Below the pieces are notes generated by a model, which made no database searches, was not told the DNA's origin, and saw only the letters and a list, made by a program, of their open reading frames with translations. DNA of 64,000 nt, taken from the IMG/VR virus record IMGVR_UViG_3300031519_004559; one strand, 5' to 3'. The position numbers and the translations under genes are program-made. Of this stretch, positions 3,612 through 38,778 are shown piece by piece (positions within the stretch are counted from its first letter, which is position 1; each line of letters begins with the position of its first letter). This stretch comes from a virus.

Positions 3612-3622
3612 TGATAAAAGCG

Positions 3623-6172: not shown

Positions 6173-6514
6173 ATGGACAGTCAGTTGTCAAGTGCATTAG
6201 AGTTTGCTAATTATACGCAAACTTTATACAATCAAAAAAAACTAGCCGAACAAACATTTTTAGATGCGTGTGTAATATATCGGAATGCCGGTAAGTTTAC
6301 AATTACAATACAACTAATTGTATTATGCCAAGGATATCGAAATCAGTCGAGCGTTATATTGTTAGACGACAATAATATTCCTATTAAATTAGACGATATA
6401 GGAGTTTTTGCACAAGAAATTCAAAAGAGCTACACAGCAGCAATTAGCACGTACTATGATGAGCATCAGCGTATTATATCTAACAAAGATGTTAAAGGCG
6501 TAATAGATGAATAA
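6173..6514 (+). CDS. Hypothetical protein
   Basis: 113-aa ORF with strong AAGGAG RBS; first gene of the glycosyltransferase block. Confidence 0.75.
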   Translation: MDSQLSSALEFANYTQTLYNQKKLAEQTFLDACVIYRNAGKFTITIQLIVLCQGYRNQSSVILLDDNNIPIKLDDIGVFAQEIQKSYTAAISTYYDEHQRIISNKDVKGVIDE

Positions 6515-7295
6515 AGGCATTTTACTGTTTGCTTTTAACAATGAAAAAATTGATTATGTAAAGCAAGCAAAATTTGTTGCTACCCGTGCAAAACAATACC
6601 TTAATCTTCCAACAACATTAGTAACTGATAGTCCTGTTGAAGACGAAGTATTTGATAACGTACGGATTGCAGTAGATAATCATCCAACAAATAATAAAAC
6701 ATATCGAGATAGAACCACTTCGACTGTGCTTAATTTTAAAAATAGAGCAAGAATGTATGCGTACGATCTTTCACCGTATGATAATACTATTCTTTTAGAT
6801 ACAGATATTGTTATTTGTAATGACCAATATAATAAAGTGTTTCAACAAACTGACGATTTGTTAATGTATAGCAATGCATACGATATTACAGGAAATAGAA
6901 ATAAGAACGAATTTACTTATGTAAGTGACATAGGTTGCAAATTTTACTGGGCAACGTGTGTGTATTTTGAAAAAACAAAAAGAACAAACATATTTTTTGA
7001 TTTGCTTAAACATATAAGCCAAAATTATTCATACTATAAAGTATTATATGAATTGCCTACAAAGGTATATCGCAACGATTATGCTTTTAGTATTGCTGTA
7101 CACATTATGAATAATTTTTCTACAAAGGCAATAGGAGAGTTTCCTGGAACCTTATATTATTCAACAGACAAAGACAGTATTATAAATTTTAATAATAATG
7201 ATATTTTGTTTTTATCTGAAAACAACAAGCCAATAAAAACAAAAGGCATGAATGTTCATTGTATGAATAAATTTAATTTGGAGAGCATTCTGTGA
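6507..7295 (+). CDS. Putative GT-A fold glycosyltransferase
   Basis: LSPYDNTILLDTD (DxD) motif; RNDYAFSIA; overlaps neighbours. Confidence 0.65.
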   Translation: MNKGILLFAFNNEKIDYVKQAKFVATRAKQYLNLPTTLVTDSPVEDEVFDNVRIAVDNHPTNNKTYRDRTTSTVLNFKNRARMYAYDLSPYDNTILLDTDIVICNDQYNKVFQQTDDLLMYSNAYDITGNRNKNEFTYVSDIGCKFYWATCVYFEKTKRTNIFFDLLKHISQNYSYYKVLYELPTKVYRNDYAFSIAVHIMNNFSTKAIGEFPGTLYYSTDKDSIINFNNNDILFLSENNKPIKTKGMNVHCMNKFNLESIL

Positions 7296-8044
7296 AAGGA
7301 TACCTTTTATACGCCCAAGGCGATACTCATATAAATTATGCAATTCAGTGTGCATATAGCTTGCGTGAGATAGGTGATACAAAACCTATAAGTCTTGTTA
7401 CAGATAAGCCGTGTAATGATACTGTATTTGATAAAATTATTATCGTAAAAGAAAACACAGATAAGTTCCATGTTGTAAACAGATCTAATTTATGGAAGCA
7501 TAGTCCGTATGACGAAACTACTGTAATTGAAAGTGACTGTCTAGTAACGCAAAGTTTGGATACATGGTGGCAAGCAAATGCTGATAGAGATTTATCGTTT
7601 ATTAGTCAAGCATACACTTATAGACAGGAACCGTTAGATATTAGATTTGACAGAAGGACTTGGATACAAAACGATCTTCCTAGTTTGTATGTTGCATTTC
7701 ATTATTTTAAAAAGACATCGTTTGTTAAAGAATTTTTTGAGTTAGTTACTACAATTAACTCGCATGAAGAAATTACAAAAACGTTTCTTCCTAAAAGAAG
7801 TCCTAAAGTTCCGAGTATGGATGTAGCAATATGTTTAGCAACAAAATTTTTAGATTGTTATTATAAAGTTGCATACACAGCTAGTGATCCTATGTTTATA
7901 CATATGAAACCAAACGCCCAAAAGTTTGTAACGCCATCTACTAATTGGTCCGACAAAGTAGGATTTTATAAAAACGGTAGCGAAGTCTTTATTGGTAATT
8001 TTAAACAAACCGGAATACTTCATTATATTGAGGAGGTTGTGTAA
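7292..8044 (+). CDS. Putative GT-A fold glycosyltransferase (paralog of previous gene)
   Basis: SPYDETTVIESD aligns with SPYDNTILLDTD of the previous gene (ExD variant). Confidence 0.6.
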   Translation: MKGYLLYAQGDTHINYAIQCAYSLREIGDTKPISLVTDKPCNDTVFDKIIIVKENTDKFHVVNRSNLWKHSPYDETTVIESDCLVTQSLDTWWQANADRDLSFISQAYTYRQEPLDIRFDRRTWIQNDLPSLYVAFHYFKKTSFVKEFFELVTTINSHEEITKTFLPKRSPKVPSMDVAICLATKFLDCYYKVAYTASDPMFIHMKPNAQKFVTPSTNWSDKVGFYKNGSEVFIGNFKQTGILHYIEEVV

Positions 8045-8526
8045 TGTATGTGTATTTTGAGAAAGAAACTAGAAATATACTGTCAATAACAAATGCCCTA
8101 AATGAGAATTTAGAAAACTTTGTAGTAAAGGACAAAGAAGAAGTTAAAGATTTTATTTCAGGCGCAAAGAACTTTGCACACTATGTTATAGATAAAGATT
8201 TTAACATAACAGAAATTAACACTAACACTACATCTTTTAACATAAATGAAGTATTGCATCATATTGTATCACAAGAAGATCCTGACCTAACAGTTATTCA
8301 TGATAGCAAATGGGCGTTCTCTATGCAAAAACCTGTTAGCGGAAATTTATTTTTTGCAGTTACAGAAAAACATAATCCGAACAAATTAATTAGAACAATA
8401 GCAATTCCAGCATCAAGTTTAGATTGCGAAATAGAGTTTAAATATGCAAGTGAACACAACATTAATAATATAAGCATTTGGATACTACATAAAACGTTTC
8501 CGGTATGTTCGTTGGAGGTAAAATGA
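8044..8526 (+). CDS. Hypothetical protein
   Basis: 160-aa ORF with GGAGG RBS, coupled to neighbours. Confidence 0.7.
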   Translation: MYVYFEKETRNILSITNALNENLENFVVKDKEEVKDFISGAKNFAHYVIDKDFNITEINTNTTSFNINEVLHHIVSQEDPDLTVIHDSKWAFSMQKPVSGNLFFAVTEKHNPNKLIRTIAIPASSLDCEIEFKYASEHNINNISIWILHKTFPVCSLEVK

Positions 8527-11111
8527 GCCAAGAATTTAAAGTATACGATTATGATATAATTTATTTAAGTTACGACGAACCAAACGCAGAAGAAAACTAT
8601 TATCATCTAAAGCAAAACATCCCTTGGGCAAAACGTGTGCATGGTGTAGAAGGCAGCGATGCTGCTCACAAAGCATGTGCTAATATTGCAGAAACTGAAA
8701 GATTTATAACTATTGACGGCGACAATAAAGTTGATCCTAAGTTTGTAAATGAAGTTTTGCAGTTTGCAGATGACGTAGATTTAAGTAAGTGCGTGGTTAG
8801 TTGGAGTGGTTATAATATGATCAACGGACTAACCTACGGAAATGGCGGAATTAAATGCTGGCCGACTGATCTTGTAAAAACAATGCGCACACACGAAAAT
8901 GCTGATCCTAACAATCCACATGCACAAGTTGACTTTTGTTGGGACTTAGAATACTTACAAGTTGACAAAACTTACAGCTATGTTTACAATAATGCAACTC
9001 CGCATCAGGCTTGGAGGGCAGGTTTCCGCGAAGGTGTTAAGATGAGTTTGCTTGAAGGCATACCTGCTAGTAAAGATAAGTTTTGCGAGCAGGTGCCTAA
9101 GAAAAACTTTGATAGGTTAAAAATTTGGTGTACAGCAGGTGCTGATGTTAAAAACGGTCTATGGGCAATTTATGGAGCTCGCGAAGGCCTTTATAAAACA
9201 ATGTGTACAGACTGGGATCACGTTAATGTAAGAGACTTTGAGCATTTAAACGACCTATGGAATGATAAAGTACAAGACGAAAGCGACCTATTAGAAGCAA
9301 TTGAAGATTACGGTGAGCGACTATCAGTAGAACTAGATATGCCAATTCCTATAGACCCACTTAGCAAAGAACAAAGCAAGTTTTTTAAAGGTGTTTACTT
9401 GCCGCCGCAACGTACTCCGCAAACATTTCTTACAAACAAAGATACAGCAGAATATGACATTGTGATGATAAGTTACAAAGAACCTAATGCAGAAGAAAAC
9501 TTTGATAAACTTAAAAGACGGTTTCCGCGGGCCAAACGTGTACATGGAGTTAAAGGAATTCATCAAGCACATATTGAAGCAGCAAAATTATGCACTACTG
9601 ATCTAATTTGGATTGTAGATGCCGATGCCGATGTGCTTGATAGTTTTAACTTTGATTACAAGTCGCCCGATAAAGAAAAAAATTATGTAAAAGTATGGCG
9701 TAGTATAAATCCTATTAACAATTTAGAATATGGGTATGGCGGCGTTAAGCTATTCCCTCGTGAAGCAACATTAAATATGGATACTACTAGGGCTGATATG
9801 ACTACAAGTATTAGTAGACATTTTAAACCTATAAAGGTAGTAAGTAATATTACAGCATTTAACACAGATGCGTATAACGCATGGAAGGGTGCATTTAGAG
9901 AATGTGCAAAATTAAGTAGTAAGGTAATTGACAGACAAAAGGAGGATGAAACAAATGAAAGACTTAAAATTTGGACAACAGTGGGAAAAGACAAACCGTT
10001 CGGCGAATACTGTATTAACGGTGCTCGTGCTGGCATGGAGTTTGGTTTATCTGATGGCGCTGATCTTAAATTAATAAACGACTTTAATTGGTTAGAACAA
10101 CAGTTTAATAATCAAACTGTAGACGAAGATACTCTTACGGCAAGTCCTGAAGTATCGAATAATGATATTAAAGACTTATTAGATAGATTTGAACTCTTAT
10201 ATGGCGGTGACATAGAAAATGTTAGACGTTTTTATAATGATAAAGATTTGTCTAGCATATTTAAATTAACAGAAAATGAAGAATTAAGAAAAGCAGTAGT
10301 TGAAAAAAATCTACACAGTATTTTTAGATTAGTAGGCGGAGAAGAAGATCTGCGCAAGGCCGTATTAGATAATAACTTATACAGCCTTGCAAGGATTATG
10401 CCAGAAGTATCAGATGAATTTAAAATTGTAAATAATAATGATTTTTATGCCCTGTGGAAAGTGTTAGAAAAGTATACAAATAGTTCTTATATAAAACCGT
10501 TAAAGGCACTATACAATGATACAACCTTTGACACTGATAGTTTTAGTAGAGGACAACTAGAAAGCAAAAAGTGGTTAGTTGACACTGTTAAAGATCTTAA
10601 TTTAATATTAGGTAATATATTCTTGTGTGCAGGATGGTATGCAACTGTAATACCTATGTTACAAGATAATGAAATATCATTTAATAATGTTCGAAGTTTT
10701 GATTTAGATCCTAATGTTTGGAAAACAGCAGAGATTTTTAATAAAGCACTTACGTCTGATGGTTGGAAATTTAAAGCACAAACTCTCGACATTCAACTTT
10801 TAAAATATGACGGATTTGAATTTGAAACTATTAAAAGTAATGGTGACATAGAAGTTATAAAAGATAGTGCAAATACAATTATTAATACAAGTTGTGAACA
10901 CATAGAAAATTTTACAGACTGGTATGCAAAAATACCAAATGGTAAATTAGTTATACTACAAAGCAACAACTTTTTTGAAGTTGACGAACATGTAAACTGT
11001 GTGAATGATATTGACGAATTTAAAGAGATGGCACCTATGACTGAGTTACATTATATGGGCTCTAAAGATATGACTAAGTACACAAGATTTATGTTGATTG
11101 GAATAAAATGA
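8523..11111 (+). CDS. Fusion of two tandem GT2-like domains, short helical repeats and a C-terminal class I SAM-dependent methyltransferase-like domain
   Basis: Duplicated SY.EPNAEEN..AKRVHGV.G..AH..D(G/A)D..GG(I/V)K..AW.(A/G).FRE; C-terminal LCAGWY, FDLD, INTSCEH. Start moved to ATG 8523 (GGAGG RBS). Confidence 0.7.
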   Translation: MSQEFKVYDYDIIYLSYDEPNAEENYYHLKQNIPWAKRVHGVEGSDAAHKACANIAETERFITIDGDNKVDPKFVNEVLQFADDVDLSKCVVSWSGYNMINGLTYGNGGIKCWPTDLVKTMRTHENADPNNPHAQVDFCWDLEYLQVDKTYSYVYNNATPHQAWRAGFREGVKMSLLEGIPASKDKFCEQVPKKNFDRLKIWCTAGADVKNGLWAIYGAREGLYKTMCTDWDHVNVRDFEHLNDLWNDKVQDESDLLEAIEDYGERLSVELDMPIPIDPLSKEQSKFFKGVYLPPQRTPQTFLTNKDTAEYDIVMISYKEPNAEENFDKLKRRFPRAKRVHGVKGIHQAHIEAAKLCTTDLIWIVDADADVLDSFNFDYKSPDKEKNYVKVWRSINPINNLEYGYGGVKLFPREATLNMDTTRADMTTSISRHFKPIKVVSNITAFNTDAYNAWKGAFRECAKLSSKVIDRQKEDETNERLKIWTTVGKDKPFGEYCINGARAGMEFGLSDGADLKLINDFNWLEQQFNNQTVDEDTLTASPEVSNNDIKDLLDRFELLYGGDIENVRRFYNDKDLSSIFKLTENEELRKAVVEKNLHSIFRLVGGEEDLRKAVLDNNLYSLARIMPEVSDEFKIVNNNDFYALWKVLEKYTNSSYIKPLKALYNDTTFDTDSFSRGQLESKKWLVDTVKDLNLILGNIFLCAGWYATVIPMLQDNEISFNNVRSFDLDPNVWKTAEIFNKALTSDGWKFKAQTLDIQLLKYDGFEFETIKSNGDIEVIKDSANTIINTSCEHIENFTDWYAKIPNGKLVILQSNNFFEVDEHVNCVNDIDEFKEMAPMTELHYMGSKDMTKYTRFMLIGIK

Positions 11112-12208
11112 AAATAGGGTTTATTGGTCTAGGTAAGTTAGGATTACCGTGTGCTGAAGTAATTGCTAAAAATGGCCATGTAGTATTAGGATACGATATA
11201 ACACCGGTTAAGAGCAACTACGTCATAGTTGAAGATTCTATCAAAGAAACTGTTACACCAGCAGACATAGTTTTTGTTGCTGTTCCTACTCCGCACGATC
11301 CTGCATATGACGGCAAGGCACCTACTTCACATTTACAGCCTAAAGACTTTGATTATAGTATTGTAAAAGATGTACTTGTGGAAGCAAACAAACATATGAC
11401 AAATAATCAAATGATTGTATTAATTAGTACAGTATTACCAGGTACAGTACGTAGAGAATTTGCACCACTAGTAACTAATACTAGATTTGTTTACAATCCA
11501 TATTTAATTGCTATGGGTACAGTTGCATGGGATATGGTCAATCCTGAAATGATTATGATTGGCACAGACGATGGTAGCGAAACAGGTGATGCAAAACAAC
11601 TTGTAGATTTTTATAAATCAATAATGGAAAACAATCCTCGCTACGTAATTGGCACCTGGGACGAATGCGAGTGTATTAAAGTTTTCTATAATACATTTAT
11701 AAGCACTAAAATTGCCCTTGTAAACATGATACAAGACGTAGCAGTGCAACAGGGTAACATTAACGTAGACGTTGTTACAGACGCTTTGTCGCAAGCTACA
11801 CAGCGTATTATAAGTCCAGCGTATATGACAGCAGGGATGGGAGATGGCGGCGCATGTCATCCTAGAGATAATATTGCTCTGCGTTTTCTAGCAGAGAAGC
11901 TAGATTTAGGATACGACATGTTTGACGCAATAATGATAGCAAGAGAACAACAAGCACGGAACATGGCTATTGAAATTTTAAAACACGGCAATCGGACACA
12001 GTTTAGTAGCGACAGTTATAAACCGGGTGTTGAATATACTGACGGTAGTTACAGTCTATTAGTGCAACATTATGTAAAAGAACTTGGCGGACAGATTGTT
12101 GATAGCAACCCGTTGGTGTATGTTTTAGTTCATCCAACTTGCAGGCCAATAAATAATGTATATAACTTCGATCCATGGAACAACTACGGAGTAAAGTATG
12201 AAACTTAG
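11108..12208 (+). CDS. ugd: UDP-glucose/GDP-mannose 6-dehydrogenase family
   Basis: GFIGLGKLG Rossmann motif, VAVPTP, STVLPGT, catalytic GGACHPRD. Confidence 0.9.
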   Translation: MKIGFIGLGKLGLPCAEVIAKNGHVVLGYDITPVKSNYVIVEDSIKETVTPADIVFVAVPTPHDPAYDGKAPTSHLQPKDFDYSIVKDVLVEANKHMTNNQMIVLISTVLPGTVRREFAPLVTNTRFVYNPYLIAMGTVAWDMVNPEMIMIGTDDGSETGDAKQLVDFYKSIMENNPRYVIGTWDECECIKVFYNTFISTKIALVNMIQDVAVQQGNINVDVVTDALSQATQRIISPAYMTAGMGDGGACHPRDNIALRFLAEKLDLGYDMFDAIMIAREQQARNMAIEILKHGNRTQFSSDSYKPGVEYTDGSYSLLVQHYVKELGGQIVDSNPLVYVLVHPTCRPINNVYNFDPWNNYGVKYET

Positions 12209-12413
12209 TTTGAGAGAAATGCAAAAAGAAAGTGCTAGGGCATTAAGCTCAATGCAAGCAACAAACAACAACATCTACCAATTTAATAAACAAGCACATC
12301 ACAACAGTCAAAATTGGTATGCAGCAGTAATAGATTGGTATGTTAATGAGCACGGAGACTTGCCTAGTAAAGTTGGCCCAGGCAAAGATATTAAATTGGT
12401 GCTAGATGATTAA
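12198..12413 (+). CDS. Small hypothetical protein
   Basis: 71-aa ORF with GGAG RBS, overlapping both neighbours. Confidence 0.65.
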   Translation: MKLSLREMQKESARALSSMQATNNNIYQFNKQAHHNSQNWYAAVIDWYVNEHGDLPSKVGPGKDIKLVLDD

Positions 12414-13447
12414 TGAAATATGCATTTATAGATGACATTCAATCGTGGGCAAAAACAGATATTAGTATGCTGCCAGAGATTGAAACACCCGATGATGTAC
12501 AAATATATCCTATTGAATATTCTCCGGGGATAGACGAACCGATTGATCAATGGATACAATTAGTAATAGACGGAACAAATAAACAGTTTATTAAACACAA
12601 TAATGTTAGAGTAGTACTTTTTGATTTATTTGAAGCAAGTAAATTTGTTTACAACGCTGCGAAATTATTAAACACCCATTTACAAAAGAAAATTTATGTA
12701 ATAACTTGTGATCAATTATTACCTAACCGATCTACTAAAGATTTACATTTTATTTTTCATAACTTTTGGAGCGGTCGTATGCTTCCGTCTAAACGTGTAT
12801 TATTTTCTAGCAAAAAATTATATATAAATTGTACTAGAGTAGTACGCCCTCATAGAGCACAATTAATAGAAGAATTAATTAACAACAATCTTTTTGACTT
12901 AGGATATAACACAATAAGTGATAAAGGTGGCGAGTTAACAAATTATCTTAATAAGACTACAACGTCAAGGATTCCTGATCAAAAATTTGATGTATTAGAT
13001 GTTAATAATTTAATTAATATAAATCCTAATAACTTTGTACCTATAAAACAATGTGAGAAATCTTTTGTGTATATTGCAACAGAAACATTGGTTGACAATA
13101 ATCGACTGTTCTTTTCAGAAAAAGTTTACAAACCAATTGCAATTGGAATGCCGTTCATGGTATTAGGTAATCCTGGAACATTAAAATCTTTAAAACAAAT
13201 GGGGTACAAGACTTTTGATAAATGGTTTAACGAAGACTACGACAACGATATTAATTTAGCAGATCGAATAAAAATCATTACAGATAATTTAAACTATTAT
13301 AGAAATTTTACAAAGCGTGAATTAGACGTTATAAGATTTGAAATGAAAGCAGTGACTACGCATAATCACAAAGTTTATAAGAAACGATGCGCAATCACTA
13401 ATTTAGAAAAACTAAAGACTGCTATACAAGGAATTATAAATGAATAA
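12413..13447 (+). CDS. Putative GT-B glycosyltransferase-like protein
   Basis: RPHR motif and ATET..FFSEKVYKPI..MPF, reminiscent of the GT10-type E(N/T)..(T/S)EK motif. Confidence 0.5.
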   Translation: MKYAFIDDIQSWAKTDISMLPEIETPDDVQIYPIEYSPGIDEPIDQWIQLVIDGTNKQFIKHNNVRVVLFDLFEASKFVYNAAKLLNTHLQKKIYVITCDQLLPNRSTKDLHFIFHNFWSGRMLPSKRVLFSSKKLYINCTRVVRPHRAQLIEELINNNLFDLGYNTISDKGGELTNYLNKTTTSRIPDQKFDVLDVNNLININPNNFVPIKQCEKSFVYIATETLVDNNRLFFSEKVYKPIAIGMPFMVLGNPGTLKSLKQMGYKTFDKWFNEDYDNDINLADRIKIITDNLNYYRNFTKRELDVIRFEMKAVTTHNHKVYKKRCAITNLEKLKTAIQGIINE

Positions 13448-13874
13448 AGGAACTATTATAGTAGTTGATGCCTGGAAGCATTGTGAAAGACCTGATATAA
13501 GACGCTTTCCGTACATTGAACAGGAAGCAAAATTATTTGGTAGCTTTTTAAATCTACGTTTAAAAAATTTAAGATCAAGCTATACGATTGTGCATTGTGC
13601 AGACGGTAGAGAGACAATGGACGAAATTAATACTTGGGAAGATATAGTAATCAATAAGATACACGAGACTCCGGATACCGGCGGCCCATACTACTTTTGT
13701 GGGTTTCATCTCGGACGCTGCATAGATAGAAAATATAACGAACTAGGCAGAACTTCACATATTATTGTAAATTTAAGTTTACTTTATCCCGGAGATGATT
13801 ATTATAAGATTGACAAAACTAAAAATTTGTGTTACAATACATATAGAGGGATGGAAAAATGCATTATGATTTAA
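13440..13874 (+). CDS. Cysteine hydrolase (isochorismatase)-like protein
   Basis: IIVVDAW strand with Asp and FCGFHLGRC resembling the catalytic G.....C segment. Confidence 0.4.
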   Translation: MNKGTIIVVDAWKHCERPDIRRFPYIEQEAKLFGSFLNLRLKNLRSSYTIVHCADGRETMDEINTWEDIVINKIHETPDTGGPYYFCGFHLGRCIDRKYNELGRTSHIIVNLSLLYPGDDYYKIDKTKNLCYNTYRGMEKCIMI

Positions 13875-15678: not shown

Positions 15679-15681
15679 GTA
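15675..15681 (+). promoter_or_regulatory. Late promoter-like motif ATAAGTA
   Basis: 8 nt upstream of ATG 15690; same spacing as at 19306. Confidence 0.4.
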
Positions 15682-15689
15682 GATATGCA

Positions 15690-19273: not shown

Positions 19274-19305
19274 ATCAGTAATTAAATTAATAAAACGGAT
19301 ACACG

Positions 19306-19312
19306 ATAAGTA
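19306..19312 (+). promoter_or_regulatory. Late promoter-like motif ATAAGTA
   Basis: Intergenic; 8 nt before ATG 19321; no Shine-Dalgarno in between. Confidence 0.45.
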
Positions 19313-19320
19313 CGTATATA

Positions 19321-22030: not shown

Positions 22031-22032
22031 CA

Positions 22033-24970: not shown

Positions 24971-24988
24971 CAGCAATTGGGGAGTAAT

Positions 24989-27195: not shown

Positions 27196-27201
27196 GGAAA
27201 T

Positions 27202-30945: not shown

Positions 30946-31546
30946 TGGCGCAAATATTAGTGTACACCAAGAAATAGCTGAACGTCTACAGCCGAAAAGC
31001 TGTATTGAAATTGGTACATATTACGGTGGAATTACATATAAGTTAAGTAAACTATTACCTAATAGTCATTTCTTTGCTGTACAAAGTTACCACGATCATA
31101 AACTTAATCATATGCCAAATACTGATAGAGGCGAATATAGTATTGGTAAAGCTGAATTAAGTAAGAGTAAAGGACTAGACGAAGACCTTAAAGACCAAGA
31201 TTGGAAGCGGAGTGTTAAAAGACATTTTCCAGAAGAGTATCACAATTACTTTGATTTTAATTTACTTGTAAAAACCTTTCAAGATTGTGATAATGTTACA
31301 CTAATACTTGACACTAGTCCTTTTAAGTATGATTGGAATAATGGGTTTGATCTAGTGATTTTTGATGTAAGTCCTTTGTATGCTGAAAATAAAATACAGT
31401 TTGATTATTGGGCAAAGTATGGCAATCCTAATAGTTACATACTAATGGGGGCGTATAATCATCAACAAGAATTTTATGAGTATGTGACATCTAAAAAATA
31501 TACTGCAGAAAAAATAAGGGATGATTATGTTCTCGTGCGCTTATGA
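30929..31546 (+). CDS. Class I SAM-dependent methyltransferase
   Basis: CIEIGTYYGG motif I; FDLVIFD. Confidence 0.75.
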   Translation: MYSMHDGANISVHQEIAERLQPKSCIEIGTYYGGITYKLSKLLPNSHFFAVQSYHDHKLNHMPNTDRGEYSIGKAELSKSKGLDEDLKDQDWKRSVKRHFPEEYHNYFDFNLLVKTFQDCDNVTLILDTSPFKYDWNNGFDLVIFDVSPLYAENKIQFDYWAKYGNPNSYILMGAYNHQQEFYEYVTSKKYTAEKIRDDYVLVRL

Positions 31547-32186
31547 GCTAGATATAGATGTCACACAACTACGTGAAGAATTACAACATTTAAACAATCC
31601 TATATACAAGTATGCAGGGTATGATGATATGTGCTTTTACGTATCGGACGAGACTGTGCGTCAACAAGGCTGTGATGCTGTTGTTAATTTTAAAAAAATA
31701 TTTAATAACGGATTTGTAGACAGCATACGTTTCCTAAATATGTATCCTGGACAAAAATATTTGCCACATGTTGATAGTAACGAACAAAATTTTCACAAAG
31801 ATATTCCTATGGATATACAACATCCTGGTAATGTAAACATACTTCTTAGCAAGCCTGTTGGAGATACTACTGTGTGGTATATTGATCCTGAACTTAGAAA
31901 GTTATGGCCTTGGGCATTTTCAAACAACGGAGATCTATTTCCTGATAGTGTCAACAAATACATTTCCGCGGATACAATGGGACAAGATATGACTACAATT
32001 CAGGAAGTAGACAGATTTAAATTGACAGACAAGGCAACATTGTTTAACACATCAGCACATCATACAATTATAAGCGAAGACGTAGAACAACCAAGATCAA
32101 GTGCTTGTTTTATATTTTGGCCTTACAATAGCTGGCAAGGTATTGTAGAAGCAGTAAAGGCAAAAGGAGTAATTTTAGAAAGATGA
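31521..32186 (+). CDS. 2OG-Fe(II) oxygenase-like protein
   Basis: PHVD; LFNTSAHH..PR. Confidence 0.65.
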   Translation: MIMFSCAYELDIDVTQLREELQHLNNPIYKYAGYDDMCFYVSDETVRQQGCDAVVNFKKIFNNGFVDSIRFLNMYPGQKYLPHVDSNEQNFHKDIPMDIQHPGNVNILLSKPVGDTTVWYIDPELRKLWPWAFSNNGDLFPDSVNKYISADTMGQDMTTIQEVDRFKLTDKATLFNTSAHHTIISEDVEQPRSSACFIFWPYNSWQGIVEAVKAKGVILER

Positions 32187-32815
32187 GAAGTGCGTATAAT
32201 TTAAAGATTGATTCAGACACTTTAAGAACTGAACTTAATTATATTGATAACATATGGAATGATTTATCGCAAGAATACAAAGACAAAATGGATTGTAAAG
32301 TATATGACGAAAATGTTTATTATGTTTCAAAAAAAGTAGTCAAAGATTTAAAACTTAACGGACTTTTAAATATGTTTAGTCTATTTGAAGATGCATTTTT
32401 AGATCATTTTAAGATTGTGCAGATGATGCCTGGAGAATTATATGGATACCATATTGATAATAATAAACATAGCATCCATAATGAGATTCCGCAACATATG
32501 ACTTGTCCTGCGGCTGTAAATATTTTGCTCAGTGAACCTGTAGGAGATATAACATTTTTTGGATTTGACAAAAAACTTAATAAGTATAAGAGCTGGGACA
32601 AAAGAAACTTGCCACGCAATGATACAGAAGAATTCGAAATTATAGATAAATTTGAAACAAAAAAAGATGCTGTATTACTTAACGTTGGCAATTGGCACAG
32701 GATTGAATCAAGCCATAATCAACCAAGAAAGATAGCAAGTTTTTTGCTTTGGCCTTACAATACGTGGGAAAATTATGTAAGTTATTGTAAATTGAAAGGA
32801 CTAATTAATGAATAA
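32183..32815 (+). CDS. 2OG-Fe(II) oxygenase-like protein (close paralog of previous gene)
   Basis: YHID; LLNVGNWH..PR; shares VNILLS.PVGD and WPYN.W with the previous gene. Confidence 0.65.
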   Translation: MRSAYNLKIDSDTLRTELNYIDNIWNDLSQEYKDKMDCKVYDENVYYVSKKVVKDLKLNGLLNMFSLFEDAFLDHFKIVQMMPGELYGYHIDNNKHSIHNEIPQHMTCPAAVNILLSEPVGDITFFGFDKKLNKYKSWDKRNLPRNDTEEFEIIDKFETKKDAVLLNVGNWHRIESSHNQPRKIASFLLWPYNTWENYVSYCKLKGLINE

Positions 32816-33419
32816 GAAACACTTACCTAGTATACATAATTACAATTTAGATATTGACCTAAAACAATTACAAGATGCTTGTGACACACTTGCAGGGAAA
32901 TTTGTTGATGTAAAAACAGCAAACCCAATGTTGTGTGATAATCATATGGAGTTAGTTGCCCATGTTTATGATAACTTTGAACAAATTAATTTAACTACAC
33001 CTAGCGAAATATTACCTTATACTACAAGTATCAAGGAAAGGTTAAGACGAAAAGAAGAACATTTATATAATGTGCCTACAGAAGATTACACAGGCAGTTA
33101 TTTTGAAAAAATAATTACACAATTAAAAGCACCAGCAAGTAGAATTAGAATTACTAAACTTGCTCCAGGAAAAAATATTCCGTTTCATGTTGACTATGAT
33201 GTAAGTTATGCTGTCAGATGTATTGTACCTATTTACGGAGACAAACAAGTAATAAATTTATTTAAACGTGAAGGCAAACTAGAAGCATATAACCTAGACA
33301 ACGGTAATGCTTATTTCCTTAACATTGGATATCCACATGCCGTAATTAACATGAGTAGCAAACCTCGAATTGCTCTTATGTTTAGTCTTAATGGTACAGA
33401 TGATTTAGAAAATGTTTAA
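32808..33419 (+). CDS. Aspartyl/asparaginyl beta-hydroxylase-like 2OG-Fe(II) oxygenase
   Basis: RIRITKLAPG..FHVD; FLNIGYPHAVIN..PR. Confidence 0.75.
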   Translation: MNKKHLPSIHNYNLDIDLKQLQDACDTLAGKFVDVKTANPMLCDNHMELVAHVYDNFEQINLTTPSEILPYTTSIKERLRRKEEHLYNVPTEDYTGSYFEKIITQLKAPASRIRITKLAPGKNIPFHVDYDVSYAVRCIVPIYGDKQVINLFKREGKLEAYNLDNGNAYFLNIGYPHAVINMSSKPRIALMFSLNGTDDLENV

Positions 33420-33993
33420 TGAATATTTTTTAGAATGTAATATAGGTGTTACATCTGCCTGGCAAGACTACGCAAAGGAAATTGTAGACACTTATAAAAA
33501 AGATTGCGAAATCACAGAGTCTAAACCTGTTCCTATTTTAAAAATAGATGAACACATAAAAATATTAGAACCTTTAAAAAATTACAAAAAATATTTAAGT
33601 GGACATTTTAGAATATTAATTATTAAACCAGGAGAACATGTGCATCATCATCTTGATGTAAATGTTCAAGGACAATATAGTCTTATACCAAAAGGAAAAC
33701 AAATAACAGCGGTTTTAAATTTTCCAATTTACGGAACAGGTGATTGCGATACTATATGGGAAGAGCCTGATTGTGAAATAAACGATCCAAGAATCTTTTA
33801 TGCCAATCCAGAAAAAGCAAAAAGTATAAAATGGAAATTTTTAGATAAAATCACTGTAAAAGAACTTCCAGTATTATTGAATACTGCGGTATGGCACAAA
33901 GTTCAGCCACCACAAAAAGAAAGAGCTTTAATAAGTTTTGTATGTAATACAGAATATGATTGGGAAACTTTACACAACGTATTTAATAATTAA
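33412..33993 (+). CDS. 2OG-Fe(II) oxygenase-like protein
   Basis: HHLD; LNFP; LLNTAVWH..ER. Confidence 0.65.
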   Translation: MFNEYFLECNIGVTSAWQDYAKEIVDTYKKDCEITESKPVPILKIDEHIKILEPLKNYKKYLSGHFRILIIKPGEHVHHHLDVNVQGQYSLIPKGKQITAVLNFPIYGTGDCDTIWEEPDCEINDPRIFYANPEKAKSIKWKFLDKITVKELPVLLNTAVWHKVQPPQKERALISFVCNTEYDWETLHNVFNN

Positions 33994-34528
33994 ATAGTTT
34001 TATATCTTTGTCATAATACTGACCAATTAAATCATATATGTTTTTATCTTCAATTTTATAATTATTAATTTTCATTCCGTTAATTATTGGTAATTTTATG
34101 TTAACACCAAATTCATTATGTAAAACTTTTTCTATACCGTCTTCTATTTTGTAGAAAACTGTATTTTCATCTAACCAATCACTTTGACATCTCCAACTAG
34201 GTGGACCCCAGTCGTAATCTACTTTCATTATTTTTTGTTGCACAAACTCTTCAAAAGTTTCTTGTACTTTGTATCTTTTTTTGCAATACCAATACCTTGA
34301 AACTGTTCTGTCCCAAGGATTACGCACAAACGCAACTTTTGGCTTGTCTATTTTTATATCTTTTGCAGGTATATGTGTTTGTTGAATATCATTGTAGTGT
34401 ATACGTGCATCATAATTTTCATTATAATGATCATCACCATTCCACACATCAAGTTTAAGAGCTGTCAGAATACTTGTTCCTGCACATTTAGGAATGTGTA
34501 ATAATATTTTATTTTTGAATTCTAGCAT
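33983..34528 (-). CDS. Sulfotransferase family 2 (carbohydrate sulfotransferase-like)
   Basis: HIPKCAGTS 5'-PSB motif and FVRNPWDRTVS 3'-PB motif. Confidence 0.85.
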   Translation of the reverse strand: MLEFKNKILLHIPKCAGTSILTALKLDVWNGDDHYNENYDARIHYNDIQQTHIPAKDIKIDKPKVAFVRNPWDRTVSRYWYCKKRYKVQETFEEFVQQKIMKVDYDWGPPSWRCQSDWLDENTVFYKIEDGIEKVLHNEFGVNIKLPIINGMKINNYKIEDKNIYDLIGQYYDKDIKLFNY

Positions 34529-34985
34529 ATAATATTTCTTCCATTTGGTGAAATAGATAACTGTGTGTGGTTTGGAAACTTACATGGTTTGAAATTGTTA
34601 TACTATCTATATCTGTTAAAATAACTTTACCTTCTGAATATATCATATTATATAAATGGAGATCATTATGGTAAATCATTTTACCATTACAATATTTTTT
34701 AGAAAGTTCTAAAAAGTTCTTCCAAATATCATTTATTTGAACATAAATTTCAACCATATCTTGTGCATCAGCTTTTATGTCTTTTAAATATTTTCCAACA
34801 GATATACCTTCAATGTATTCGTAAATAATTTTATTGCTGTCGTACTCTAATATTTTTGGAAGAAAGTTTGGTTGTTCTGCTATCAATATATCAAGAGCCG
34901 TTTTATCTACAGGCCACTGACTTTCTTTGATAACTGTATTTCCCTGTCTAGTTAGACTGTTGTTATAAAATCTTTTTCTTTCCAT
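34509..34985 (-). CDS. Small protein-kinase-like (APH/RIO-type) phosphotransferase
   Basis: PKI, YEYIEG, HNDLHLYN catalytic loop, TDID. Confidence 0.7.
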   Translation of the reverse strand: MERKRFYNNSLTRQGNTVIKESQWPVDKTALDILIAEQPNFLPKILEYDSNKIIYEYIEGISVGKYLKDIKADAQDMVEIYVQINDIWKNFLELSKKYCNGKMIYHNDLHLYNMIYSEGKVILTDIDSITISNHVSFQTTHSYLFHQMEEILYARIQK

Positions 34986-34988
34986 TAT

Positions 34989-35510
34989 CTAATTTTTCCA
35001 TCTTTGTTTCACTTGTTTTGTTACAAACGGCCAACCACTAAGATTAAGTCTTTCGCCTGTACACGGTTCTACCCAATGATCAAAACCTGTACGCATTATT
35101 ACAAGTCTGTTGCGTTTTGGCAATATACGCATATCTTCTGTACATAATTCTCCATCAGTCTCATCTGTAAGATACAGCATCCACACCCAGTCGCCATACA
35201 CTTCCGGGTCTTCTTTGTGTTTGCCTATACGACTACTGGAAGTAAACTTTTTAGCAAACAGTTGCATCGGTTCTAAATCATTAATAGGCAAACTTGTGCC
35301 AATGTGTTCACCTATTTCACTCAACAGCATTAGTCTATGTGGACTAGTCCTAATATCATTCTTAATCATTTGCCATTCGTAGTCTGTATATTCGCCTACG
35401 TGCGATCCTGTTTCACTATCTAATTGTAGTAGTTCGCCCTTGCAAAGTTCGTCTAGTTGTTGTAGATAGTCTTCGTCAAATATGCTATCAAGTACTATAA
35501 CCGTGTTCAC
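34989..35510 (-). CDS. 2OG-Fe(II) oxygenase (prolyl-4-hydroxylase-like)
   Basis: HKED, MLYL..GEL..P.RNRLV..HWV..R. Confidence 0.75.
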   Translation of the reverse strand: MNTVIVLDSIFDEDYLQQLDELCKGELLQLDSETGSHVGEYTDYEWQMIKNDIRTSPHRLMLLSEIGEHIGTSLPINDLEPMQLFAKKFTSSSRIGKHKEDPEVYGDWVWMLYLTDETDGELCTEDMRILPKRNRLVIMRTGFDHWVEPCTGERLNLSGWPFVTKQVKQRWKN

Positions 35511-36240
35511 GTTCCCAATCCTTCCAAGTTTTATTTGTATCTTCTAACCACTGATTATTATGATCTTTACGTGTACTCTTAGGACCATTAACACTAGCAA
35601 CAGCATGTAGTCTAACACTACGACAGGGTACAACACTATGAGGTTTAGCAGTGTTTAAAATAAATCCTTCTCCGGGGTTACGGAATACACTACCGTCACT
35701 AGTTTCGATACTACTAGTTACTCCTTCACCGTCGTTAAGTAGTACATGATGATATCTAAATCCAGTATCACCATCGGTGTGCCATTGGAAACAACAATCA
35801 TGCTCCATGTAGCTAAACCAGTAGTTACTTCTTAAGTCTGGTATAGTCTGTTCAAGTTCGTCCCAGTACTTCTTACCAAGCTCTCTAAAATCTTTATGTA
35901 CAAAGCAGTATATGTTAAGCCATTGATGATCTTCTATCCTTGCATTTTCTTTGCGTAGTTTTACATAGTATAGCACACCTGTTTCGTATTGTGTTTCTGT
36001 AACATAGTCTAGCCAATTAGATTCGTCTTTCATATCAAAGCCTCTAAGGCCATTATAGATATCTCGTTTAGTCATTAAATCTTTCGGACGTTGCATATAC
36101 ACATTTAAATATGTTTGGTCACCAAAGTCTAGGTCGGTCCATATTTCGCCAGTCATGTTATAAAATAATTGTGTAAGCTCTTTTGTATTGCTGATTGGGT
36201 CGCAATGAACAAATGCTTCATTCATCTTAGGGTCAAACAT
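35488..36240 (-). CDS. 2OG-Fe(II) oxygenase-like protein
   Basis: WHTD; RYH; LNTAKPHSV..RLH. Confidence 0.7.
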   Translation of the reverse strand: MFDPKMNEAFVHCDPISNTKELTQLFYNMTGEIWTDLDFGDQTYLNVYMQRPKDLMTKRDIYNGLRGFDMKDESNWLDYVTETQYETGVLYYVKLRKENARIEDHQWLNIYCFVHKDFRELGKKYWDELEQTIPDLRSNYWFSYMEHDCCFQWHTDGDTGFRYHHVLLNDGEGVTSSIETSDGSVFRNPGEGFILNTAKPHSVVPCRSVRLHAVASVNGPKSTRKDHNNQWLEDTNKTWKDWEREHGYST

Positions 36241-36677
36241 TTAGCAACCTCCTCTATTGGTTCTTCAAAGCATATTTGAAAATTGTATCTATCGTGTTTG
36301 TTATTATTAATATAATGTTCTAATTGTGTGTTAAACAAGTATGGTGTGCTTAAATGTATCTGAGGACCGGTTGTAAAATAACAGGGAGCATAATGCTTGT
36401 GGTAATGTAACGGTACAATTAAAACAGTGTTACGTTTCCATTTTGTATTATCAACGTGTGCAGTTACTTTGGTATAGCCAGGCTGGTGTACAAAGAATGT
36501 GTAGCTTTTTAAGTTAAACTTATTAAATTCATCTATATTTTTATCCCAGCACAAATTGCCATCGCGACTTCCGCTAATAGTATCGTATTCAACAAAGTCT
36601 CCTTGCGGCAATAGACTTTCTAAGTATTCAGTTTCTTGTTTAGAAATTAAATCTGTTGAGGCAAAATAAGGAATCAT
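36222..36677 (-). CDS. 2OG-Fe(II) oxygenase-like protein
   Basis: AHVD; LFNTQLEH..R. Confidence 0.65.
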   Translation of the reverse strand: MIPYFASTDLISKQETEYLESLLPQGDFVEYDTISGSRDGNLCWDKNIDEFNKFNLKSYTFFVHQPGYTKVTAHVDNTKWKRNTVLIVPLHYHKHYAPCYFTTGPQIHLSTPYLFNTQLEHYINNNKHDRYNFQICFEEPIEEVAKCLTLR

Positions 36678-37324
36678 TAATAAACTTCAAATCTAAACTT
36701 GTTAAAAGAATCGTCTGTAATTTTTATATTCATAACAAGCATTATAGAGTCTTTACTATTTGCATTAAACAACACATGTCTTTTAGTTGTATTAACAAAT
36801 GTACTTATGCCGTATTTAAAAGGTACGCTTTCAAAGTTTGCGCCTGACTTAATCATCATAAAGAAATTAGGTGGGACACAATTTTGTATAGGAACAATAA
36901 TCCTAAATACATCTGGAGGCCCCTTTCTGCCACCGTCTAGATGGTGAGGAAAATGACCGCCTTGTGGCAATCTCAAAAAATGACATCTTGCTAACCAAGG
37001 CTTCCATGGGTTAATAACCTTTTGCAATTCAGGACATTTATGATATACATCTGTAAGTGTAGCAAAATCTAATTCAGTGTAACTGTTGCCTGTTCTTTCA
37101 TATAAGTCTTTTAGACTATCTAGATCAGGACCATCTAATTCTCCGTGTAAACTTGTTACACTTAATCCGTCTCTTAATATTCGAGGCTTGCCTGAATTAA
37201 ATTTCTTCCAGTCATTTTCAAATTGTTCTAGTTCTTTCATCACTTGCGTTGTACTGCAATAGATATTATTTAACTCGCATACATCGCCGAATGCATTTAT
37301 ATTATTGTGTAGTTCCCAACTCAT
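36677..37324 (-). CDS. Aspartyl/asparaginyl beta-hydroxylase-like 2OG-Fe(II) oxygenase
   Basis: RCHFLRLPQGGHFPHHLD; NTTKRH. Confidence 0.7.
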   Translation of the reverse strand: MSWELHNNINAFGDVCELNNIYCSTTQVMKELEQFENDWKKFNSGKPRILRDGLSVTSLHGELDGPDLDSLKDLYERTGNSYTELDFATLTDVYHKCPELQKVINPWKPWLARCHFLRLPQGGHFPHHLDGGRKGPPDVFRIIVPIQNCVPPNFFMMIKSGANFESVPFKYGISTFVNTTKRHVLFNANSKDSIMLVMNIKITDDSFNKFRFEVY

Positions 37325-37772
37325 TGAGTACCTCCTTTACAGCATCTTCTATAGTAATTGTTTCTAATAATTGCGGATTGTGTTCTAATATAGGATGACC
37401 TTTTAAAAATCCCCATGTTAAATATGTTTGGTTATAATTTTTACTAAAGTGCCGTAGTGTTAGTTTATTGTCTTTTTGTATTTGTTCAAGTACTCCGGAC
37501 ACTTTTGCTTCTGTAATTTTACTGCCAATGTTTATGCATCTTATTTTGTTTTTATACGCTCTAACGCTAACATTGACTTGTGTTAGACCAATGTCGGCAT
37601 TGTTTATAATATAGTCTATTTTATGATCAAATATCTTTTCCCAATCAACTTGCAAGTCATAACCGTTAGATCTACTAAAGCCTTTTATAGTGTATCCTTG
37701 TTCTTTGCACTCGTTAGCAATATGTTTGCCAAAGCCGTTTGTATGACCAGTTATGCCAATCGTAATACCCAT
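37302..37772 (-). CDS. Short SDR/Rossmann-fold oxidoreductase-like protein
   Basis: ITGHTNGFG, INNA, INIGS. Start set to ATG 37772 (GGAGG RBS). Confidence 0.65.
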   Translation of the reverse strand: MGITIGITGHTNGFGKHIANECKEQGYTIKGFSRSNGYDLQVDWEKIFDHKIDYIINNADIGLTQVNVSVRAYKNKIRCINIGSKITEAKVSGVLEQIQKDNKLTLRHFSKNYNQTYLTWGFLKGHPILEHNPQLLETITIEDAVKEVLNELGTTQ

Positions 37773-38206
37773 TGTATTCCTCCCAACGGTATTTCCTCTT
37801 GTGTTATTATCCAATCATATTTAGAACGGTGTTGAAAGTAATCTAGCAATTTGCCATTTTCTTCCCTGCTTACCCAAATGTCTTTGTAGCCTAAACTAAT
37901 AGCGTGTGATGTACTAACATCTAACGTTTCTAATCCTCGAGCAAGGTCTGCTTTAAGACCACCAAAGTTGTACTGTCTGTCTCTAGTGTGCCTGCTCATA
38001 ATGCGTATGCTACCGTTATACTCCGGACGCTCAATGCCAGCACTATAATATATTAGATGCGAATCCCAAGCCATACGGGCAAATTTTGTATGTTGAAACA
38101 ATGGCCATTTACTGTAATTGTTAGCATGTTTATGGCCTTCTGTTTTTGCAAACAGAGTTTTAATATCTTCTAAGTGACTATCAATTGGTGCGAGTATCCA
38201 TTTCAT
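37751..38206 (-). CDS. GNAT-like / hypothetical protein
   Basis: 151 aa; RIMSR..R..A...GYKDIWVS pattern is loosely GNAT-like. Confidence 0.4.
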   Translation of the reverse strand: MKWILAPIDSHLEDIKTLFAKTEGHKHANNYSKWPLFQHTKFARMAWDSHLIYYSAGIERPEYNGSIRIMSRHTRDRQYNFGGLKADLARGLETLDVSTSHAISLGYKDIWVSREENGKLLDYFQHRSKYDWIITQEEIPLGGIQWVLRLA

Positions 38207-38778
38207 TTAATACTCGCCTTATGATGATCTGCGTGATTGCCTTCAAACGGTGCAATGAGATTGATCCATATTCTATTAATAGGCCCATTTAAGTTATGTC
38301 CCCAAAGATTAAGTGTACCATAACCTAAGTATGCTAGTGAAAATACTATGCTGTGTACTATAAGACTGTTAACGCCAAACACTGCAAAAAATAATAACTG
38401 ATGAACAATAAAAATGTATGTGCCGTATTTGTGAAAAAATATTACACGTTTGTTACGTAGTAAGTCTTTTACAAATTTACGCGGCAATGATTCAACTTTC
38501 CATAAACTAAAAAGTATCTTCCACCACGGATGATTTTTTGAACTATGAGGGTCTAATTCTGTATCAGCATACATATGATGCATACGATGCACACCTGCCC
38601 AGCCTAATACGCTTCGACCTCCGCAGAGCAATCCACAATAAAGCATTATTACTTCTTGCCAAGGTGCTGCATTAAATTCTTTATGTGAAAAATATCTGTG
38701 ATACCCTAGAGTTATTCCGATAACAGCCAAGGTCATATAAAGAAAATAGGCAGATAAAAGTATTAAGTATGTTTCCAT
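38203..38778 (-). CDS. Delta-9-type fatty acid desaturase
   Basis: Three His boxes HRYFSH, HRMHH..D..DPHS, EGNHADHH; hydrophobic segments. Confidence 0.9.
   Translation of the reverse strand: METYLILLSAYFLYMTLAVIGITLGYHRYFSHKEFNAAPWQEVIMLYCGLLCGGRSVLGWAGVHRMHHMYADTELDPHSSKNHPWWKILFSLWKVESLPRKFVKDLLRNKRVIFFHKYGTYIFIVHQLLFFAVFGVNSLIVHSIVFSLAYLGYGTLNLWGHNLNGPINRIWINLIAPFEGNHADHHKASIK

Follow-up and report, generated by a model that had tools for sequence, protein, structure and literature searches.

What product is assembled by some forty tailoring-type genes lodged between the tail-fibre genes of a phage, and on which molecule does it end? This question is raised by positions 6173-38778 of a 64,000-nt stretch of DNA from IMG/VR virus record IMGVR_UViG_3300031519_004559, the whole of which we call the window; genes are named by their start coordinate. 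A preliminary reading of the letters (the sequence-only reading) had proposed an undescribed system that builds a heavily decorated glycan or post-translational coat on virion proteins. We found that this island opens with a promoter motif of its own, that it contains a five-domain core of glycosyltransferase (GT) and radical S-adenosylmethionine (rSAM) domains, and that the same core resides in bacterial chromosomes. Observed directly are the genes present, their fold classes, the way they are conserved, the promoter motifs and the cellular counterparts. From these we infer that expression is early, that the substrate is a sugar, that the cassettes serve to diversify the product, and where that product ends, which together make up our favoured reading: with a probability of about 0.4, the island encodes an early-type cytoplasmic pathway tailoring a UDP-sugar-derived product by means of a conserved core and diversifying, swappable cassettes, and a recognition-related glycoconjugate is the likely destination.

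The core enzymes, their cellular counterparts and their promoters

The core consists of the two GT-A domains of gene 8505 and the rSAM enzymes 14614, 19321 and 26083. The model of 8505 residues 1-300 (predicted local distance difference test, pLDDT, 85.7) adopts a GT-A fold; VIA aligned it with B4GALNT1, STIV A197, SunS and SpsA (Z 8.6-9.9, root-mean-square deviation 3.0-3.6 over 132-145 residues), and Foldseek ranked the PBCV-1 A64R glycosyltransferase first, with SunS/ThuS also high. D71 and D73 of the DxD motif are invariant, the second domain weakly matches Pfam GT2 (E 0.003), and an Atlas lookup with a 65%-identical homologue of the window's domain as query led to a cluster named 'Glycosyltransferase 2-like'. 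At least 8000 homologues of 8505 exist, and a Pfam family is given for 0 of the 120 listed. The sequence-only reading had counted five GT-like domains in four genes; the two in 8505 stand, while 6507, 7292 and 12413 match nothing in Pfam or PHROGs. The sugar-nucleotide dehydrogenase Ugd was confirmed by Pfam (Table 1) and is 60-70% identical in the islands of the relatives G001 and G002.

Ten genes encode rSAM enzymes (14614, 15624, 16722, 18224, 19321, 20714, 23036, 24977, 26083 and 28750), all with an intact CX3CX2C motif. The Pfam Radical_SAM cut-off (29.5 bits) is reached by six of them; the remaining four, at 23-29 bits, are clear paralogs of members, with E values of 1e-27 to 1e-44 among themselves. 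BLASTP recovered the three paralog groups of SPASM/twitch rSAMs that had been read from the letters. Three proteins exceed the curated cut-off (170 bits) of the N_Twi_rSAM family NF033640, namely 19321 (418.8 bits), 24977 (242.1) and 20714 (196.8), each over model positions ~1-397, and the remaining seven are non-members at 28-49 bits. In 52 group 2-type sequences, C14, C32, C95 and C98 are invariant and lie N-terminal to C151/C155/C158, and the N-terminal region of the N-twitch profile aligns to BtrN residues 185-257, the auxiliary-cluster (twitch) domain (E 8.6e-6). The N-terminal domains of 19321 and 24977 score 24.5 and 24.3 bits against Pfam SPASM (cut-off 21.5), and 16722 scores 20.3. 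Groups 1 and 3 have no extension ahead of CX3CX2C, which begins at residue 18-44; group 1 carries five or six C-terminal Cys residues, which fits a twitch or partial SPASM domain, and the C-terminal Cys residues of 26083 are almost invariant.

The best structural matches of the 19321 model (pLDDT 90) are CteB, SkfB, PFL-AE, SuiB, viperin-like enzymes, anSME, BlsE and DesII, with template modelling (TM) scores of 0.25-0.5. The 26083 family profile matches MoaA, viperin, SuiB, CteB and anSME (E 1e-8 to 1e-12). Both sets of matches define a SPASM/twitch neighbourhood without deciding between a sugar and a peptide substrate. With TM scores of only 0.25-0.5 to all solved rSAMs, there is therefore no close relative and no substrate that can be transferred from one. 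The large phage-borne tailoring island with uncharacterised chemistry announced by the sequence-only reading is borne out. The B12 radical SAM of that reading survives in part. Gene 28750 matches TIGR04013 (B12-binding plus rSAM domain) over residues 60-354 (E 1e-8) and remains B12-type-like, but a Pfam scan reported no B12-binding domain in it, and its membership in the KedN5 family of B12-type rSAM methyltransferases was ruled out, since its score is 158.6 bits where 700 is required, and its rSAM part alone aligns.

A scan of species-representative genomes with 19321 alone as query returned phage contigs in metagenome-assembled genomes (MAGs) of Flavobacteriales and 'Dojkabacteria', and the Bdellovibrionia MAG GCA_030427805.1. 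In the latter, a 493.6-kb contig (JAUICP010000004.1) holds a compact five-domain core among MoxR/DUF58, SppA and PHP genes: the two GT-A domains of 8505 are encoded there by one gene each (42% identity to residues 13-308, 45% to residues 314-536), and 19321, 14614 and 26083 have orthologues at 60%, 48% and 66% identity. A 917-kb contig of the same MAG carries, directly beside rpoD and dnaG, a 35-kb look-alike island in which 13 N-twitch genes exceed the cut-off; it also has rSAMs of groups 1 and 3, two Asp_Arg_Hydrox-type proteins (one Pfam-confirmed), another weak 2-oxoglutarate (2OG) oxygenase match, a 28004-like protein (E 2e-31), a methyltransferase and a UDPGP sugar-nucleotide enzyme, next to which a gene weakly matches part of 8505 (23% identity, E 3e-11). 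Of 201 Bdellovibrionia genomes sampled, 60 have NF033640 members above cut-off, often in many copies; the same holds for 2 of 200 other genomes, from Bacteroidota, and for 0 of 14 control genomes. One Bacteroidota genome (G359) has four N-twitch genes flanked by GT2 genes at 30.3, 47.4, 56.9 and 62.5 kb, and a 28750-like rSAM (E 1e-85) accompanies them; the family of island gene 13859 recurs next to N-twitch rSAMs in Bdellovibrionia and Bacteroidota. Since the core is present in bacterial chromosomes, the system is not phage-specific, and its target would be neither phage fibre nor phage DNA as such; the phage-specific (virion) target of the sequence-only reading is contradicted by chromosomal copies at 42-66% identity. 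The occurrence of core and accessory families in Bdellovibrionia and Bacteroidota therefore points to a cellular-type glycoconjugate or a sugar metabolite as the substrate.

The Bdellovibrionia arrays of up to 13 N-twitch genes beside rpoD/dnaG were located in MAG G007 (contig C1, 745-775 kb; L117-L118), and one genome of the class gave up to 66 first-look N-twitch candidates. A literature search on chromosomal N-twitch rSAM arrays in Bdellovibrionia found no paper.

Conservation across phages separates the core from its surroundings. Gene 26083 has 592 relatives in IMG/VR, the best 80 of them 78-97% identical; in relative G004 it reaches 78% identity, against 57% for the family-B DNA polymerase (PolB). 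Among the 80 loci with 26083, an orthologue of 19321 is present in 47 and one of 14614 in 21, the others being rare. Orthologues of 19321 in phages are 59-97% identical, and that of 14614 is 77-84% identical in relatives. The right half of the island (27.2-38.8 kb) is syntenic in about ten IMG/VR contigs only (L081-L091, 63-99% identity). Relatives carry 17-20 Radical_SAM matches per contig, 10-11 of them N_Twi_rSAM above cut-off, and clustering at 45% identity divides 244 N-twitch ORFs (open reading frames) from 111 loci into 68 groups. These genes are old cassettes shuffled among genomes, not copies evolving fast in place. Searched against 1.84 billion representative proteins, the N-twitch profile recovered 8,800 clusters (50% identity) at E<=1e-30. 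Additionally, N-twitch proteins of ~800-1400 aa (P0243-P0258) contain two or three profile matches and are natural tandem fusions.

The timing of the island was approached through its promoter motifs. The sigma-70-type promoter at its head (Table 1) occupies the sole real gap between fibre genes and island, and its position is kept in G001 at 15776-15804. Promoters of the same class precede seven replication-module genes by 7-47 nt, several with GTG right before the -10 element, and the set looks like the phage's early/middle promoter class. G001 has further copies directly before its homologues of 19321 and 14614, and G002 has one before its 26083 homologue. The T4-type late motif TATAAATA occurs three times in the window against 10.6 expected: one copy, at 40004-40011 (-), stands 26 nt before the start codon of the Mtd_N gene, and a single copy falls in the island, inside a gene. 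A late-type motif GATAAATA at 3622-3629 (+) precedes fibre gene 3651. No TATAAATA-type late promoter was found upstream of island genes. The late-promoter-like motifs that the sequence-only reading placed inside the island were accordingly rejected, and a sigma-70-type promoter opens the island instead. These motifs suggest early or middle expression of the plus-strand unit.

Product and destination

We favour the cytoplasmic, sugar-tailoring pathway because GT-A domains and sugar-nucleotide enzymes constantly accompany the rSAMs, be it in phages, in Bdellovibrionia or in Bacteroidota, and because all island proteins but one are soluble and come with no precursor peptide, no RiPP (ribosomally synthesised and post-translationally modified peptide) recognition element (RRE), no base-installing enzyme and no exporter. 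The sugar context is supported by Ugd, the two DxD GT-A domains, the sulfotransferase, the UDPGP enzyme of the look-alike island and the GT2 genes of G359. In this pathway, Ugd and the phage's own MetK would feed the core, which would make a basic glycoside or glycan and then edit it by radical chemistry. The cassettes (rSAM paralogs, PP-loop ATPase, 2OG oxygenases, methyltransferases, sulfotransferase, kinase and pyridoxal phosphate (PLP)-like enzyme) would diversify the product from phage to phage. The most likely destination of this product would be a glycoconjugate at the cell surface or with a part in recognition, which would belong to the infected cell or be transferred to virions later.

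Several observations weigh against this reading. The nearest solved structures to 19321 are the peptide maturases CteB and SkfB (TM 0.32-0.38), so that a protein or peptide substrate is possible, and no member of the NF033640, 26083 or 14614 families has a substrate assigned by experiment. The GT-A fold is also that of nucleotidyltransferases, and the structural matches of the 8505 model are moderate (Z ~9-10). No flippase, polymerase or exporter lies in the island, and a surface route would need host machinery. As to timing, the promoters are consensus matches in the sequence; promoter-like sites in total number 85 against 80.8 expected, which is not above chance, and their placement alone is telling. 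The Mtd_N gene with its late motif stands upstream of all nine minus-strand genes, and enzymes made early could act on late virion proteins.

It is this last possibility that a virion coat requires, with early enzymes that persist and decorate the phage's own fibres or virion proteins with a glycan or another post-translational coat. The position of the island between fibre-type genes in the window, G001 and G002 speaks for it, as do the fast divergence of the left-flank fibre genes (31-51% identity to their G001/G002 counterparts) beside a variable island and the ranking of the GT-A matches, with the capsid-glycosylating PBCV-1 A64R at the top and the protein-acting SunS/ThuS also high. However, those matches reach TM 0.3-0.4 only, the island has its own sigma-70-type promoter, T4-type late motifs are depleted in the window, and the core with several accessory families occurs in bacterial chromosomes where no phage structural gene is close by, which makes the coat put forward by the sequence-only reading unlikely. 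We judge just as unlikely that the pathway yields a soluble small molecule from a UDP-sugar, nucleoside-like or aminocyclitol-like, acting as a weapon or metabolic effector against host or competitors and used by predatory bacteria as well. Early-type promoters, all-soluble enzymes without acceptor-specific or export genes, and a system common to predatory Bdellovibrionia would suit such a product. There is also a weak likeness to BlsE (cytosylglucuronate decarboxylase), BtrN, DesII and viperin-like enzymes, and the combination of Ugd, GT, rSAMs and a PLP-like enzyme recalls the peptidyl-nucleoside logic of blasticidin biosynthesis. Yet this likeness stays at the superfamily level, the island has no self-resistance gene or exporter, and its strong cassette turnover is more like surface-antigen variation than a conserved effector.

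Maturation of a peptide or protein, with RiPP-like rSAMs or rSAMs that crosslink or epimerise a protein and with the sugar enzymes secondary, seems to us a little more doubtful still. CteB, SkfB, SuiB, anSME and YydG are among the best structural or profile neighbours of 19321 and 26083, and many weak NCBIfam matches are to peptide maturases. But no precursor-like small ORF was found, the sole extra ORF (71 aa, 12198-12413) lacking a Cys-rich or repeat core, and an RRE is missing: groups 1 and 3 have no N-terminal extension, the N-terminus of group 2 is a twitch domain, and no RRE-type Pfam match was obtained. The constant partnership with GT-A domains and sugar-nucleotide enzymes also argues against a peptide. 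Finally, a glycan or side chain on a modified DNA base, perhaps made in concert with the 7-deazaguanine module (46.5-58 kb), would agree with early-type promoters, soluble enzymes and an island PP-loop protein with a QueC-like Cys cluster, and DNA-glycan clusters can adjoin structural genes (bioRxiv 10.1101/2023.12.21.572611). We nevertheless regard DNA hypermodification as very improbable. The PP-loop family is not QueC and is 25-46% conserved in relatives, against 64-81% for the deazaguanine genes; no base-entry enzyme (hydroxymethylase, TET/JBP, DpdA) appears among the island's Pfam matches; and the same core stands beside housekeeping genes in bacterial chromosomes. A Tet_JBP search in five relatives gave no match, the control genomes being equally silent. 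A thymidylate-synthase-like gene is present in one of these five, distant from the island.

Beyond the favoured pathway itself, we tentatively consider, as a possible but rather doubtful extension, that the island is one instance of a large system common to giant aquatic phages and predatory Bdellovibrionia, in which a GT-A enzyme would lay down a sugar, three rSAM families would perform new radical chemistry on carbohydrate, and the cassettes would yield a hypervariable glycoconjugate for recognition or exclusion between attacker and prey. If so, abundant ocean phages and predatory bacteria would have in common an unassayed enzyme system of thousands of distinct rSAMs, probably with new radical chemistry on sugars. 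The five-domain core is small enough to be expressed and tested, and the Bdellovibrionia copy may permit genetics in a cellular organism. The early-type promoter and the cellular counterparts shift the focus from decoration of fibres to the attacker's action in or on the cell.

Comparison with described systems

Hypervariable islands that are linked to fibre genes and contain glycosyltransferases, Ugd and rSAM cassettes have been described as the host recognition cluster of pelagimyophages and cyanomyophages, for which the authors propose a modification of the host O-chain, the function being untested there (Zaragoza-Solas et al. 2020, PMC7029224). Also, Nishimura et al. (2017, PMC5332604) reported a T4-like marine genome with 12 rSAM genes, none tested for function. 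The present island is alike in being a hypervariable fibre-region island with glycosyltransferases, Ugd and rSAM cassettes gained and lost between close relatives; its position between fibre genes and its turnover of content agree with the host recognition cluster, and the landmarks VrlC and gp14 fall outside the window. It differs from both in belonging to a jumbo lineage and in a far higher rSAM load (10 here, 17-20 in relatives). None of the island rSAMs tested was closely matched in cultured phages: in tblastn against phage records, 26083 found no match and 19321 only matches of 23-26%, in RsoM2USA and Vibrio phages K566/K567. Genes 19321, 20714 and 24977 share with NF033640 the four-Cys N-terminal domain followed by CX3CX2C; that family is catalogued, with no tested member found, whereas here its members are part of a larger set that also includes GT-A domains and two further rSAM families. 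The claim of an undescribed system thus holds for the chemistry and fails for the gene content, which has precedents in PMC7029224, PMC5332604 and NF033640.

With the enzymes acting on sugars or nucleosides (BtrN, DesII, BlsE) and on peptides (CteB, SkfB, SuiB, anSME), the island rSAMs share the rSAM core and an auxiliary Fe-S domain; the difference from the solved twitch/SPASM enzymes is that in group 2 the auxiliary domain precedes the core. The 8505 domains can be compared with PBCV-1 A64R and Mimivirus R655/R699, which are likewise virus-encoded, cytoplasmic GT-A enzymes working without host machinery of the ER/Golgi type (Z 7-8 for the Mimivirus GTs). This likeness is at the level of the fold only (TM 0.3-0.4), and those systems have no rSAM arrays and a known acceptor, capsid or fibrils.

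Layout, accessory enzymes and the phage

The island comprises 40 ORFs, 31 on the plus strand and 9 on the minus strand, with 38 of 39 junctions overlapping or at most 10 nt apart, in agreement with the tight packing of about forty tailoring-type genes seen at first reading; fibre genes at both ends were also confirmed (Table 1). The left-flank genes carry Pfam Collar and Gp10_C domains and a Peptidase_G2 intramolecular-chaperone domain and match PHROGs tail fibre and tail collar families. The linkage to fibre genes in relatives, which had been set as a test, was found in G001 and G002: four fibre-type genes lead through homologues of 6173, 6507, 7292 and 8505 into a 46-52 kb rSAM-rich island, followed by an opposite-strand Mtd_N gene, a CobS/CobT-like pair and the replication module. 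The leader genes keep their order at the head of both islands at 25-46% identity, and a homologue of 8044 is also detectable in G001.

Table 1. Coordinates and strand of the features of the island and its surroundings in the window.
Feature	Coordinates	Strand	Basis or remark
Four fibre-type genes, left flank	1-1674, 1680-3611, 3651-5150, 5172-6116	+	Pfam, PHROGs
Sigma-70-type promoter TTGACA-17-TATAAT, 12/12	6124-6152	+	21 nt upstream of 6173
Four leader genes (6173, 6507, 7292, 8044)	6173-8526	+	6507/7292 are paralogs; no Pfam or PHROGs assignment
Two GT-A (GT2-like) domains (residues ~13-308, 314-536) and C-terminal methyltransferase-like domain	8505-11111	+	Core component
Ugd (UDP-glucose/GDP-mannose dehydrogenase)	11108-12208	+	Pfam UDPG_MGDP_dh_N 71.3 bits, central domain 59.5 bits
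71-aa ORF and genes 12413, 13440, 13859	12198-14614	+	13859: weak DUF6473
Internal promoter, 11/12	13810-13838	+	21 nt before 13859
Group 1 rSAMs 14614/15624/16722/18224 and gene 17675	14614-19273	+	C-terminal SPASM/twitch-like Cys clusters
Group 2 N-terminal-twitch rSAMs 19321, 20714	19321-22030	+	NF033640
PP-loop ATPase with C-terminal C...CxxCxxC cluster	22033-23046	+	Between N-twitch rSAM and group 3 rSAM
Group 3 rSAM 23036, gene 24209, N-twitch rSAM 24977	23036-26086	+	
Group 3 rSAM 26083	26083-27195	+	Radical_SAM 58.8 bits; island's most conserved gene
Accessory module: TauD 27202, PLP-like 28004, B12-type-like rSAM 28750, HxD..H 30280, methyltransferase-like 30929	27202-33993	+	
Accessory module, further members: HxD..H family 31521/32183/33412, Asp_Arg_Hydrox 32808	within 27202-33993	+	
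Accessory block, first part: sulfotransferase 33983, RIO-like kinase 34509, 2OG oxygenase 34989, HxD..H 35488	within 33983-38778	-	
Accessory block, rest: 36222, hydroxylase-like 36677, short-chain dehydrogenase/reductase (SDR)-like 37302, 37751, desaturase-like 38203	within 33983-38778	-	
Mtd_N-domain fibre-type gene, right flank	38824-39978	-	Pfam Mtd_N 41.2 bits, cut-off 26.3
Replication-module promoters TTGACA-17-TATAAT/TATACT	42804-42832, 44019-44047, 46484-46512, 49743-49771, 53234-53262, 56240-56268, 61714-61742	-	

The accessory enzymes could be followed through Pfam and an hhalign comparison of 13 profile families. Among the oxygenases, 27202 (TauD, 93.8 bits) and 32808 (Asp_Arg_Hydrox, 25.6 bits, cut-off 22.6) pass, 34989 is borderline (2OG-FeII_Oxy_3, 26.6 bits, cut-off 27), and 36677 is a hydroxylase relative (hhalign 98.5% to 32808). 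Genes 31521, 32183 and 33412 form one family with an invariant HxD...H...R, while 30280 and 35488 show the HxD...H triad pattern. HxD...H is invariant in the alignments of the putative oxygenase families A1, A3 and A4, and hhalign relates some members to 32808 at 69-83%; no PDB profile match and no Pfam match was obtained for these three families. Ten HxD(N)..H oxygenases had been announced; by motif and profile, four may be taken as solid (27202, 32808, 34989, 36677) and five as plausible (30280, 31521, 32183, 33412, 35488), and a tenth was not found.

In the PP-loop ATPase 22033, the SGGADSA motif and four Cys residues are invariant in the family. An identity as QueC was rejected: the Pfam QueC match reaches 18.6 bits against a cut-off of 22 and covers only residues 118-139 (the P-loop), and the family profile matches only PP-loop motifs in the PDB, at E 0.1 or weaker. 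The sulfotransferase (33983, Pfam) and the kinase (34509, RIO-like, 24.6 bits against 22) were upheld. For other labels the outcome is mixed: the C-terminus of 8505 is methyltransferase-like, and the second methyltransferase (30929), the PLP enzyme (28004) and the SDR (37302) have weak Pfam support only. The two SGNH proteins, the lyase-like protein and the GCN5-related N-acetyltransferase (GNAT) of the sequence-only reading drew nothing under those labels from Pfam or PHROGs. Ten unannotated island proteins gave one PHROGs family, of unknown function, and Pfam at E up to 5 gave nothing usable for the unannotated proteins.

The desaturase call for 38203 (38203-38778, minus strand, 191 aa) stands on three His boxes (HRYFSH, HRMHH and HKDHH-type); Pfam is silent, and the protein has about two-thirds of the usual desaturase length. 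It was present in 28 of the first 101 loci. Its two hydrophobic segments are the only ones among the island proteins, in which no other transmembrane segment or signal was found. As had been noted at first sight, the island has no non-ribosomal peptide synthetase or polyketide synthase, no transporter and no secretion signal.

Outside the island, 8 kb away, lies metK (46519-47610, minus strand), with all three Pfam S-AdoMet_synt domains at 112-192 bits; its product plausibly supplies S-adenosylmethionine to the ten rSAMs and the methyltransferases. At 41495-43996 (minus strand), an AAA ATPase (CobS/MoxR-like, PHROG 1297) and a DUF2201 metallopeptidase/VWA protein form a pair that is 73-78% identical in relatives; the Bdellovibrionia rSAM core has a MoxR/DUF58 pair just upstream.

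Pfam and PHROGs show the window to be phage DNA, densely coded, with genes for tail-fibre/collar proteins, PolB, MetK and a CobS/CobT-like pair. At the DNA level, none of 50,697 phage records matched 14-34 kb or 40-62 kb in megablast, tRNA and Rfam scans of the window found nothing, and PolB is only 45-48% identical to those of Sinorhizobium phage Phosso and Agrobacterium phage Atu_ph07. IMG/VR holds many relatives, of which five contigs (212-275 kb) were examined. PolB identity is 83-85% in three and 57% in one, the fifth contig holding the gene start only. CheckV estimates a completeness of 60-77% for these contigs; the genomes should therefore measure about 350 kb, and the phage, which is marine and uncultured, is a member of a jumbo lineage.

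Two near-identical phage contigs were binned with Flavobacteriales MAGs, which may or may not be a hint to the host; NF033640, however, is rare in the Bacteroidota genomes sampled (2 of 200) and common in those of Bdellovibrionia (60 of 201). Contigs with 57-94% identical copies of 19321 are filed in MAGs of Crocinitomicaceae (L112), Arcticimaribacter (L113) and 'Dojkabacteria' (L116). Island genes are present on L112 at 84-94% identity, homologues of a phage exonuclease and of CobS/CobT-like proteins on L116, and all three are probably mis-binned phage DNA. The PolB gene is open in the window, and its matches in three relatives (G001:C1:87011-89686, G002:C1:218578-221292 and G003:C1:35419-38136) contain one in-frame stop apiece (TAG or TAA); the gene may be split there, the stop may be recoded, or the assembly may be wrong.

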